Of a stretch of 64,000 nucleotides of DNA, positions 37,533 to 59,706 are shown one piece after another (the stretch's first letter is position 1; every line of letters starts with the position of its first letter). The stretch is taken from the sequence record PQ287642.1. One strand, given 5' to 3'. This DNA is from Pseudomonas phage HHBS36_1. Below the pieces are notes generated by a model. The model did not search any database and had not been told where the DNA came from. It worked only from the letters and a program-made list of their open reading frames with translations. Both the position numbers and the translations under genes were made by a program.

Positions 37533-38999
37533 TTAAGCTGCTTTCGCCAACCATTCTTCCAAGGACGGAAGATAGTCCTCGTGAGCATAGTTGATGATGG
37601 TCTCTACTACCGGACCTTGTAGTTCCAAGTTACCCGAGATCTCGTGCGGATCATCAGGACTCAGTACCCAAGTATGCGGAGCGATTCGTTCAGTTGCATT
37701 AGCCAGATAGTTATCGGGCATCAACGTCAAATTCAACTGATCGCCGTCGAAATCCGCATTAGGAGCTTTAAGACAGAGGACCGACATGCTGATCGAGTTA
37801 TCGCGAATGTCATTCTTGATAACGGTGATGAAGAACTGTTGAGTCGAACCACGTTGCAGAGTCGGGTTGCGGTGGAATACACAAGGAAGACCCTTATACT
37901 TCGATTCCGCGATGATCTCTTTGAACAGTTGATCGATGACTTCGTTGTACTTCAGAACGTTCTCGTAAATGAACGAGTTCGCTTGGCGAGTCGTCATACG
38001 GAATTTGCGTTTGAGCTTGTTGATCAGATGATACTTCAACAGCTGACAACCGACACCCCACGGAATGTGAAGTTCATCGTAATCATGCGGATCACTGATA
38101 GAAGTAATTACTGCACGCGCAGTCAGGTTAAGACGACCACCTAGTACATGTCGACGAACCAAACCGGGTTTCTGTGCAATTCGTTGTTTGTCGTAGTTCT
38201 CGTGGAAGATAGCTAGAAGCTTCAGTGCACGAGCTACACGGTTTTGTACAGTGATTGGTTTCAGCGGAATTGCCGAACTACCGATACTACTAATAGTCAG
38301 TACCGCATCGATTGCTGCGCCGATCGGCTTATCGATGTAAACACCCGAGGTCGTAGACTCTACAACGAAGCAGAGTTTAGTTGGGATCGGAATGTTCTTC
38401 GGGAACAGATGTTCTTTATTCTGGTTAACGAATGCAGCCATCTCACCTTTGTTGGTATTGATGATACTGCTATCGAGCAAGAACTGGAAGATCGTATCGA
38501 AGTTCTGAACGAAGTTGTTCAGTCCACGCGGGAACTGGCGAGCCAGCAACTTGTCAAGTTTCCGTTTTGTTTCCTTCGAACTGATCGTATCGTAATCGTA
38601 CTGATACTGGGTGTTGGTCAGATACTCCAGGAAGTCGAATTCTTTCATCGACATATAACCTGAAAGCATAATCCACAACTCGGGACTCACCAGACGATCC
38701 ACCCCTTCCGGTGCCCGAATCCACATCGATGGAACGATGGGTCGGTTGCTCGTGCTTACTACTGGTGTACCGCAGTTATCGCAGATTACCCCAAGCTTGT
38801 ATGCTTCTGTGATATGCTCACAGTCACACGAAGCTGAGTTCTCGATCGCATCTGCATCCTGATAATGGGAGAACAGATAACGTTGGAATTCCTCCTTTTG
38901 TTCAGCATTGCTGGTATTAAAGTCATTAGCGAATACTACTTTACCTCTTTGGTTAGCGAGCATCTCGTCATGATTGACAACCTGAGCATATAGACCCAT
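37533..38999 (-). CDS. multisubunit RNA polymerase beta-prime subunit, N-terminal part (catalytic NADFDGDQ)
   Basis: SVLCLKAPNADFDGDQLNL is the universal beta-prime Mg-binding motif; N-terminal CDCEH...CDNCG zinc-binding cysteines; AGGAAG RBS. Confidence 0.8.
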   Translation of the reverse strand: MGLYAQVVNHDEMLANQRGKVVFANDFNTSNAEQKEEFQRYLFSHYQDADAIENSASCDCEHITEAYKLGVICDNCGTPVVSTSNRPIVPSMWIRAPEGVDRLVSPELWIMLSGYMSMKEFDFLEYLTNTQYQYDYDTISSKETKRKLDKLLARQFPRGLNNFVQNFDTIFQFLLDSSIINTNKGEMAAFVNQNKEHLFPKNIPIPTKLCFVVESTTSGVYIDKPIGAAIDAVLTISSIGSSAIPLKPITVQNRVARALKLLAIFHENYDKQRIAQKPGLVRRHVLGGRLNLTARAVITSISDPHDYDELHIPWGVGCQLLKYHLINKLKRKFRMTTRQANSFIYENVLKYNEVIDQLFKEIIAESKYKGLPCVFHRNPTLQRGSTQQFFITVIKNDIRDNSISMSVLCLKAPNADFDGDQLNLTLMPDNYLANATERIAPHTWVLSPDDPHEISGNLELQGPVVETIINYAHEDYLPSLEEWLAKAA

Positions 39000-39040
39000 A
39001 CCTACTTCCTATTATGTCTCGACAAAAAAAGGAGATAGAA

Positions 39041-39060
39041 GCGGCTCCCGAAGGAGCCGC
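39041..39060 (-). terminator. intrinsic terminator at end of long 3' region of putative chimallin transcript
   Basis: A7 tract + GCGGCTCC-cgaa-GGAGCCGC. Confidence 0.55.
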
Positions 39061-39391
39061 CTTATCTACTATCGATGGACCACCAACGGAGCCTGGCACG
39101 ATCCTAGCATCGTCTACAAAGCTTAACCTCCGCTCTTCTCTGTAGCACTTTGACACTAGGACCTTTTACCATCCATCGTTGTTTGATCACACGTTACCCA
39201 AGAGTAACTCCTTTCGGTTAAGTGATCACTCACGGCCCGTGTAGCGAGAGGTCGACCTAGACTTTACGCCCACTAGTCGATTACTTCGCGGAACCTACTC
39301 CTAACCGTTATCACCGAAGTGAACCAGGGTCGCAGTATTTGAATCGGGATGCCAGCCTTCTGACACCCCTATCAACCGGGGGAGTTGTTTC
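39061..39391 (-). other. 330-nt ORF-free, GC-elevated region between putative chimallin stop and its terminator (candidate structured 3' UTR / ncRNA)
   Basis: No ORF on either strand other than a weak 62-aa one; local hairpins GTTAC-ccaaga-GTAAC and ACGAT-cctagc-ATCGT; GC visibly higher than flanking intergenic DNA. Confidence 0.35.
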
Positions 39392-58044: not shown

Positions 58045-58467
58045 TTAAGGCTTCATATAACCTTGATAACGTTCTATAGCTCGTTCACCTACGGCTTTAC
58101 GATGTTCATGCATTTCAACAGCATCGCGCCTGGCATACGTAGCCCAAATGCGGGCACTGTCCATTATATCCCTTTGATAAAGGTCAGTTCCACTCAGAGC
58201 TTGAATAAACTCATCGTCCGGTAGATCTTCCTGTTTGTAGAAAGTATCCTCTGCTTGGATATAATAAAACAGTACTTGGAGTGCAGCCCTTGTCTCGGAG
58301 TCAGAGAGCAAAGCTTTCAATGCACTGCGCATTGTGTTATTACAGACGTCGCAGTTAATAGCGAGTTCACCAATGGTAATACGGTCATTCTGTGCCACAG
58401 TTCGCATCAATACTTCAGTGCAATCAACGGCCAGTTTGATAAGACGTTCAGGTGTAAGCTTTATCAT
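58045..58467 (-). CDS. hypothetical protein (140 aa)
   Basis: ORF. Confidence 0.5.
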   Translation of the reverse strand: MIKLTPERLIKLAVDCTEVLMRTVAQNDRITIGELAINCDVCNNTMRSALKALLSDSETRAALQVLFYYIQAEDTFYKQEDLPDDEFIQALSGTDLYQRDIMDSARIWATYARRDAVEMHEHRKAVGERAIERYQGYMKP

Positions 58468-58706
58468 TTCTTCTCCTTACAAACAAAGATAATCTTCGTT
58501 GTTCGATTTGTATTGATGACATGGAGTTCACTGTTATCGCCACGGTGGTAACTGATATTCCAATTATTCCGGGTATACAAAGAACTGTGTTGATCAATGA
58601 TGGCTCTACACACCTCAATGGAAGACACAGAAACTTCTTCTTCTTTAACTACAGGTAATTCGCCAATAGCTCCTGTAGAGACAATGGTAGCTAAGATCCA
58701 ACTCAT
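58464..58706 (-). CDS. hypothetical protein (80 aa)
   Basis: ORF, 4-nt overlap, immediately downstream of PhuZ gene. Confidence 0.45.
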   Translation of the reverse strand: MSWILATIVSTGAIGELPVVKEEEVSVSSIEVCRAIIDQHSSLYTRNNWNISYHRGDNSELHVINTNRTTKIIFVCKEKK

Positions 58707-58752
58707 GAAACCTCCAGACGGAATAAAAGGGGAGCCGAAGCTCCCCAGTTAT

Positions 58753-59706
58753 TTAGAGGACGAAACCATCATCAGAACGGTTGTCATCGATATCAACGAT
58801 CGCAGCTCGTTGGGTGTAACGAACTTGCTGACGATGATGTTCCTGTTTTTGATCCAGGAGAGACTTAATCCGCTCTTGGATACCAACCGAGTTGATAACG
58901 AAGTGCAGTTGCTCAGACAGAGCGTCTTCGTCGTCAGGGGATGCGATACCCACAGTCCGAACAAACGGATTACCATAAGCTACTTCTTTGGAAGCATCTG
59001 TGTACAGGGATGCGACAGAAATCATCTCAGGGACAGAAGCTGCTTCTTGGCGAGAAGTATGGATATGCAGTTCACACAGTTGCGGTTGAATGTAACTATG
59101 CTTACTAGTGAAACGTGCCCAGTGATCCAGATCCAGTACATCAAGACGTTCATGTTTCTGATTAGACAGGTAAATCAGAGCATGGACAGCAAATACCGCA
59201 TCTTTGTCGATTTCGGAATACGGAACGCCGTTCACGTTTTCGATCGGACAGATGTTGATCGGGGTGTTGGTTGCAGCAGCGATACCTTCCAGAGTCTTCA
59301 TGGTATCGATATCGTTTTGCAGAACCTCAGTGGATTCAATACCACTGACAACGACTGGAATTACAGTTTCACCAGCTTTAGCCAGAGCCGATACAATCAG
59401 CGGACCAAGAACAGAACCAGAACCACCACCCATAGAAAACAGGACGATATTGAAATCGCCAGCTGGATATCGTTCAAGGAAAGGTGCAATCTGATGGCGA
59501 ACCTTAGGCATGATGAATGCACGGTTCTTACCTGCCCCACGAGTACCCTCGGTCAAAAAGACACGATCGATATCATGACTAGAACTTACGTTCTTATCGC
59601 AGGTGTCAATGTATACCAGATCCGGATGCCATTGAAGGTTTACACCAATATTCAGACCAGCACCACCACAGCAGTATACACGAGTTTTTACTTTAGTCAT
59701 TTCCAC
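58753..59706 (-). CDS. phuZ: PhuZ phage tubulin/FtsZ-like GTPase
   Basis: CCGGAGLNIG (G-box like), DTCDKNV, TEGTRGAGKNR, SMGGGSGSVLGPLI (tubulin signature GGGTGSG variant), NDIDTMKTLE, QLCELHIHT, FVINSVG, acidic C-terminal tail IVDIDDNRSDDGFVL; 317 aa, same size class as 201phi2-1 PhuZ. Confidence 0.85.
   Translation of the reverse strand: MEMTKVKTRVYCCGGAGLNIGVNLQWHPDLVYIDTCDKNVSSSHDIDRVFLTEGTRGAGKNRAFIMPKVRHQIAPFLERYPAGDFNIVLFSMGGGSGSVLGPLIVSALAKAGETVIPVVVSGIESTEVLQNDIDTMKTLEGIAAATNTPINICPIENVNGVPYSEIDKDAVFAVHALIYLSNQKHERLDVLDLDHWARFTSKHSYIQPQLCELHIHTSRQEAASVPEMISVASLYTDASKEVAYGNPFVRTVGIASPDDEDALSEQLHFVINSVGIQERIKSLLDQKQEHHRQQVRYTQRAAIVDIDDNRSDDGFVL

Follow-up and report, generated by a model that had tools for sequence, protein, structure and literature searches.

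Identification of the phage and its nucleus gene set

We analyzed a 64-kb stretch of Pseudomonas phage HHBS36_1 (the window; coordinates are window positions unless another locus is named). With a probability of about 96%, it comes from a jumbo phage that infects Pseudomonas aeruginosa and belongs to the species Pawinskivirus PS119XW (PA1C type), and it includes the gene set of the phage nucleus: the shell protein chimallin, the tubulin PhuZ and subunits of split multisubunit RNA polymerases (RNAPs). A preceding reading of the bare sequence (the sequence-only reading) had proposed a Chimalliviridae-type phage with this gene set, and the proposal held in profile, solved-structure and pairwise comparisons as well as in genome identity. 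The assignment is based on DNA identity with known phages, synteny, protein family membership and conserved catalytic or signature residues.

In megablast searches of deposited phage genomes, the segment 37533-59706 matched PA1C (MK599315), vB_PaeM_PS119XW (NC_070882), BRkr, phiLBG22 and phiHQ at 99.4-99.6% identity, with 99-100% of the query covered. Outside this segment, the window matched the same five genomes, whose records are 300.6-306.3 kb each, at 99.0-99.7% identity, and the alignment was colinear along the whole length. All five have the chimallin, PhuZ and RNAP genes in common with the window, together with a frame break in the helicase gene; none is 100% identical to it, so that the window represents either a further isolate or a further assembly. 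PS119XW is classified as the type species of Pawinskivirus in the family Chimalliviridae. The next nearest relative, HPP-Temi, showed 82-86% DNA identity, and DNA-level similarity to PhiPA3, 201phi2-1 and phiKZ was confined to a few core genes.

With a cut-off of at least 100 aa, the window held 101 open reading frames (ORFs), the long ones mostly on the minus strand, which carried 52 of the 64 non-overlapping ORFs used for codon statistics. Their order equals that of phiKZ gp39-gp89 and of the corresponding PhiPA3 region, with phiKZ gp39, 50, 54, 55, 67-71/73, 74, 75, 80 and 82 as colinear markers. PhiPA3 (Miltoncavirus), in which nucleus formation has been studied by experiment, belongs to another genus but has an identical gene order from PhuZ to the beta-prime C gene of the virion RNAP (vRNAP). 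In phiKZ (Phikzvirus), the archetype, synteny covers gp39-gp89, whereas chimallin and PhuZ are only 47% and 36-38% identical to their counterparts in the window. The features that make up the nucleus gene set are as follows, where nvRNAP denotes the non-virion RNAP and PDB the Protein Data Bank.

39392-41257, minus strand: chimallin (ChmA), major nuclear shell protein, 621 aa (Pfam, PHROG and PDB matches)
58753-59700, minus strand: PhuZ, phage tubulin, 315 aa from the ATG (PHROG, Pfam and PDB matches, alignment)
37533-38999, minus strand: nvRNAP beta-prime N, phiKZ gp55/56.1 homologue, uninterrupted (PDB 7ogp_A, E 1.3e-239)
22721-24694, minus strand: nvRNAP beta-prime C, phiKZ gp74 homologue (7ogp_D, E 0, 1078 bits, end to end)
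24721-26832, minus strand: nvRNAP beta C, phiKZ gp71/73 homologue, uninterrupted (7ogp_C, E 0, 1072 bits)
30259-31836, minus strand: fifth nvRNAP subunit, phiKZ gp68 homologue (57% identical over the full length)
14499-15842, minus strand: vRNAP beta-prime C, phiKZ gp80 homologue (70% identical over the full length)
28605-30239, minus strand: PicA/Imp1 homologue (phiKZ gp69, PhiPA3 gp63), nuclear protein-import factor (PHROG 3141, E 1.8e-163)
31959-32705, minus strand: PhiPA3 gp61/phiKZ gp67 homologue, nuclear-shell-associated, ChmC in the literature (72% identical to PhiPA3 gp61)
27311-28630, minus strand: PhiPA3 gp64/phiKZ gp70 homologue, shell-network protein (60% and 40% identical, respectively)

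The Chimalliviridae core genome has been described (PMC10299810). Its hallmarks were found here as a chimallin gene, a non-virion multisubunit RNAP with four of its five subunits in the window, and core-gene blocks in phiKZ-like order that include PicA.

The 621-aa protein is chimallin

The sequence-only reading had taken the product of 39392-41257 for chimallin on account of its size, its strong codon bias and its position. The only Pfam match was PF25677 (Chimallin_Phikzvirus; 1101.8 bits), which aligned residues 1-621 to profile positions 1-627, and the only PHROG match was PHROG 4795, "nuclear shell protein" (E 1.1e-198). All four PDB matches (8fne, 7sqq, 8igg and 7sqt) were chimallin/PhuN chains, led by 8fne of PhiPA3 (E 7.3e-261) and 7sqq of 201phi2-1 (E 7e-204), with 7sqt as a more distant chimallin entry. 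The protein was 65% identical to PhiPA3 gp53 and 47% identical to phiKZ gp54. The full-length profile match and the solved chimallin structures thus establish its identity.

The codon bias was borne out as well: the effective number of codons of this gene (33.3) was the lowest of the 64 ORFs (median 50.2), and its GC content at third codon positions (0.62) was the highest. Size, strong codon bias and the high expression that they imply are equally expected of an HK97-fold major capsid protein, and they are the sole support for reading 39392-41257 as a capsid gene rather than a shell gene. That reading is extremely improbable and is already refuted by PF25677, PHROG 4795 and the PDB chimallin matches, among which no capsid family occurred; moreover, the phiKZ major capsid gene, gp120, lies outside the region syntenic with the window. 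Where a capsid match or a lack of chimallin similarity had been named as the outcome that would tell against chimallin, we found an overwhelming chimallin match. In the direction of transcription, the chimallin gene is the immediate upstream neighbour of the beta-prime N gene; gp54 and gp55 are neighbours in phiKZ too, and this had also been read correctly.

On its upstream side, chimallin is adjoined by a 541-aa ORF (41548-43173, minus strand) with neither a Pfam nor a PHROG match. Its similarity to PhiPA3 gp052, which has a like size and the same position, was marginal (74 aa, E 1e-4), and it seems to be a rapidly evolving ORF that is the counterpart of that gene by position.

PhuZ retains the tubulin signature residues

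The product of 58753-59700 matched PHROG 4733, "tubulin PhuZ" (E 5.4e-105), and the Pfam family PF22334 TubZ_C_2 (140.4 bits, E 2.5e-41), whereas the generic Pfam Tubulin match stayed under its curated cut-off (26.6 vs 33 bits). Full-length PDB matches were obtained to PhuZ of 201phi2-1 (3r4v/3j5v, E 2e-90) and to phiKZ gp39 (3zbp, E 7e-63), and in the alignment the protein was 70% identical to PhiPA3 gp28 and 38% identical to phiKZ gp39.

The translation contains DTCDKNV, TEGTRGAG, SMGGGSGSVLGPLI, NDIDTMKTLE and the acidic tail IVDIDDNRSDDGFVL. These motifs had been listed in the sequence-only reading, except that its "TKGTRGAG-like" element actually reads TEGTRGAG. The nucleotide-binding loop of the tubulin/FtsZ GTPases is present, with SMGGGSGS conserved and GG-SGS invariant. 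The T7-loop aspartates D187 and D190, which by analogy with PhuZ of other phages would be catalytic in GTP hydrolysis, do not vary between the window, PhiPA3 and phiKZ. The C-terminal domain and its acidic tail, which serves filament contacts in phage tubulins, are likewise present, and in the tail, DIDDNRSDDGFVL, D303, D305, D306 and G312 are invariant.

The identity of this gene as PhuZ, including the match to tubulin structures, therefore stood, but its start did not: it had been placed at the GTG at 59706, and the start is most likely the ATG at 59700, two codons further on, because the homologues in the alignment and the 948-nt RefSeq coding sequence of PS119XW begin there (MTKVKT...). 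An overlapping ORF on the plus strand (58597-59718) looks like a shadow ORF of PhuZ.

Split RNA polymerases of both types are represented

In phiKZ, the nvRNAP consists of gp55, gp68, gp71-73, gp74 and gp123, and the virion RNAP of gp178, gp149, gp180 and gp80; gp74 carries the bridge helix, the trigger helix and the Cys4 Zn site (Zn finger), and the role of gp68 has also been described (PMC8287921). Subunits in the window matched the phiKZ nvRNAP structure (7OGP) at E 1e-239 or below. The best PDB match of the beta-prime N product was 7ogp_A, which comprises PHIKZ055 and 056.1; bacterial beta-prime chains aligned to its residues 274-439 around the DFDGD region, and a Pfam RNA_pol_Rpb1_2 match was also found. 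The catalytic NADFDGDQ, noted in the earlier reading, is present in the translation and is encoded at 37737-37760 on the minus strand. The product of 24721-26832, for which beta C-terminal motifs had been claimed, proved to be nvRNAP beta C, with bacterial beta chains matching residues 383-455 and a Pfam RNA_pol_Rpb2_6 match.

Two genes had been read as resembling beta-prime C, and they correspond to an nvRNAP subunit of gp74 type (22721-24694) and a virion-type gp80 paralogue (14499-15842). C270, C323, C332 and C335 are invariant in the gp74 homologue, and C325, C378, C396 and C399 in the gp80 homologue. The latter matched PHROG 2962 (E 5.9e-157), with a cross-match to the gp74-family PHROG 3015 (E 8.8e-8), and its hhalign comparison with the gp74 group was weak (E 2.9e-4, 40% probability), covering the Cys4/trigger-helix region. 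The beta-prime subunit is thus split in the expected manner: DxDGD lies in the N fragment, and the C fragment carries the bridge helix, the trigger helix and the Cys4 Zn site.

Split RNAPs on their own are also found in phages that build no nucleus (PMC10299810), and RNAP chains of AR9 were weak matches of the window subunits (22721-24694 to 7s00_D, E 4e-13). Both points would suit an origin from a non-nucleus jumbo phage with multisubunit RNAPs (PBS1/AR9-like), in which the PhuZ-like gene would be a generic TubZ-type partition tubulin. However, the phiKZ matches surpassed those to AR9 by many orders of magnitude, and the window contains chimallin, PicA and shell-associated proteins. Chimallin and the 99% DNA identity to Chimalliviridae genomes already refute such an origin, to which we give hardly any credence.

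The claim that the phage carries two split RNAPs was right in kind, although the window alone shows four of the five nvRNAP subunits and one of at least four vRNAP subunits, that of gp80 type. In addition, the gene set had been assigned to the span 37533-59706, and the RNAP genes at 14499-26832 lie outside it.

Shell-associated and replication genes

Homologues of PicA/Imp1 and ChmC are encoded in the window; like the gp64/gp70 homologue and the DNA polymerase below, they were not in the earlier list. The PicA/Imp1 homologue was 67% identical to PhiPA3 gp63 and 50% identical to phiKZ gp69; PicA, an import factor associated with the shell, is essential and is conserved in every phage that encodes chimallin (PMC11087766). 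The C-terminal ~100 residues of the gp64/gp70 homologue form a low-complexity tail rich in Met, Gln, Gly and Pro (MMQQQMGMMMPMNNGMMMPGNGMMQMNGMGGMMQPMQ...), and the tail of phiKZ gp70 is similar in composition and poorly alignable.

Two replication genes belong to the same syntenic region, the polymerase gene lying within the span 37533-59706.

46242-48392, minus strand: divergent family B DNA polymerase, phiKZ gp50 homologue (Pfam PF20286 divDNApol, 1042.9 bits; PHROG 2927, E 7.6e-297)
21130-22664, minus strand: core helicase, homologous to phiKZ gp75 and divided between two frames that overlap, 22227-22664 and 21130-22287

Within the otherwise minus-strand block, two genes lie on the plus strand (53358-54170 and 54118-55104), and their products are a DUF7484 protein (328.6 bits) and a Kelch-repeat beta-propeller protein (Kelch_6, E 2.1e-23). 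The latter is unusual for a phage and is annotated as "kelch repeat protein" in PA1C. A tRNA scan of the window found none.

The helicase frame is broken at tandem slippery heptamers

The two helicase frames result from a break inside the Walker A motif, where 1 nt is deleted relative to HPP-Temi and PhiPA3, whose helicase is intact. The sequence at the break reads CAA ACG GGA AAG GGA AAA CCC TCA CGA GCC TAG, with a premature stop at 22229-22227. The identical 33-mer occurs in all five deposited PS119XW-type relatives (six of six genomes with the window). These relatives come from Poland, Japan, Russia, France and Pakistan, and the break is therefore not an error of a single assembly.

Two slippery heptamers lie in tandem at the break on the minus strand: G_GGA_AAG (22254-22248), which is also the lambda G/GT site, and G_GGA_AAA (22248-22242). 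A -1 shift on either heptamer would restore ...TGKGKTLTSLAS (GKGKTLTS); the product would be 511 aa long and colinear with the HPP-Temi helicase, which is intact and of the same length. The predicted trans-frame peptide across the break spans ...VDLQTGKGKTLTSLASLASMGVR.... Relative to HPP-Temi, the ratio of nonsynonymous to synonymous substitution rates (dN/dS) was 0.076 before the break and 0.040 after it, and no second disruption was found. Among the six close genomes, the helicase has six variable sites, which are too few for testing selection after the break. In a check for frameshift-stimulating RNA structure downstream of the heptamers, a hairpin was predicted, which was no better than shuffled sequences (z -0.21) and was dropped as evidence for frameshifting.

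The break may be bridged by a frameshift, either programmed or compensating in translation; alternatively, the gene may be a pseudogene that is tolerated, or its protein may be made in two parts. We consider it possible, though on balance rather unlikely, that the essential core helicase of the PS119XW species is made only by -1 frameshifting on the tandem heptamers within the Walker A codons, the fixed indel being compensated in translation or having regulatory value. In the regulatory version, a low dose of helicase would be made beside a 145-aa N-terminal product.

The synonymous divergence (dS) of the helicase from HPP-Temi (locus 22264-23799) was uneven, at 0.21 for the initial 411 nt and 0.78 for the rest of the gene, which suggests a recombination mosaic or a local RNA constraint.

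The window carries intron-free alleles at three intron sites of relatives

PA1C and BRkr matched 37533-59706 in one piece, as in the window, whereas PS119XW, phiLBG22 and phiHQ matched it in two, and the intron behind the two-piece match was read directly for PS119XW. Its beta-prime N gene holds a 362-bp group I intron without an ORF (RF00028, 75.7 bits; PS119XW locus 5190-5551), whose insertion point is directly behind the final Asp codon of DFDGD. An Rfam scan of the whole window found no group I intron, and the empty site in the nvRNAP beta-prime N gene lies between 37740 and 37739 on the minus strand. Between the window and PS119XW, six synonymous differences fell within about 20 nt of the empty site (37725-37743) vs eight in the other roughly 1450 nt; the insertion-site codons read GGC GAT CAG TTG AAT TTG against GGA GAT/CAA CTT AAC TTA in the window/PS119XW comparison. 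Such clustering is the pattern expected from co-conversion during homing, or from selection acting on the target site.

Unlike the window, phiKZ is interrupted by group I introns at both gp55/56.1 and gp71/73 (phiKZ-locus coordinates 30169-30490 and 45392-45618), beside the annotated HNH endonuclease gene gp56 and beside gp72, respectively. HPP-Temi has a group I intron and an HNH gene in its gp82-type DNA polymerase gene (HPP-Temi locus 12355-12690), whereas the gp82-type DNA polymerase of the window (9317-11260) is one intact 647-aa ORF. Three sites that hold introns in relatives are thus intron-free in the window: 37533-38999, 24721-26832 and 9317-11260.

Predicted phage-nucleus cycle and evidence weighed against it

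From experiments in phiKZ, PhiPA3 and 201phi2-1 (PMC10299810, PMC11087766, PMC8287921), we infer by homology that the proteins act here as in the model phages. The gp80-like subunit would be part of the virion RNAP, which would be injected with the DNA and transcribe the early genes. Chimallin would self-assemble into a protein lattice round the replicating genome and keep host nucleases out, with PicA/Imp1 letting selected proteins into the compartment and the gp61/gp67-like and gp64/gp70-like proteins associating with the shell. Inside the compartment, the five-subunit nvRNAP would perform middle and late transcription, and GTP-dependent PhuZ filaments would centre and rotate the nucleus.

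Several findings weigh against this reading. First, the gp80-like product had no PDB match, even at E <= 1, with either the single sequence or a 3-sequence profile; because this match was missing, its beta-prime identity was drawn from gp74 paralogy (the PHROG cross-match and the weak hhalign alignment) and from the literature. Second, the window is without nvRNAP beta-N (gp123-like) and three vRNAP subunits, and these remaining subunits must lie in the rest of the roughly 300-kb genome. Third, our literature search found no paper imaging a nucleus in PA1C- or PS119XW-infected cells, and we therefore infer nucleus formation by the PS119XW species. Fourth, the helicase frame is broken in Walker A in all six PS119XW-type genomes, as would be expected if the gene set were present in a partly degenerate lineage, with a helicase pseudogene and a replication that may depart from the phiKZ model. 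We regard such degeneration as improbable: viable lytic phages of the PS119XW type have been recovered in five countries, the helicase lacks a second disruption, and its comparison with the intact HPP-Temi gene gives a dN/dS of 0.04-0.08. Furthermore, the break falls on a heptamer, G_GGA_AAG, that is highly shift-prone in E. coli (PMC5009743), so that the full-length helicase is plausibly still made. The assignment to a nucleus-encoding phage of the PS119XW species remains the preferred one.

Significance

The nucleus gene set of this phage is already known. In RefSeq, the orthologues in PS119XW bear the names "nuclear shell protein" and "tubulin PhuZ", and PA1C ChmA and the PA1C homologues of PhiPA3 gp61, gp63 and gp64 appear in a paper on the phage-nucleus interaction network (PMC10643120). 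No novel reading of the gene set is left: hallmark genes of a defined family were re-identified in a genome that has been deposited several times and is partly so annotated. The value of the result is that of a positive control, in which chimallin, PhuZ and split RNAPs were recognized from raw sequence. The helicase break, which is fixed in the lineage and falls on a slippery heptamer of a core gene, is the sole item with some residual novelty and could interest specialists. So could the intron-free alleles, one of them with a recoded insertion site, which bear on intron-mediated competition between co-infecting jumbo phages.

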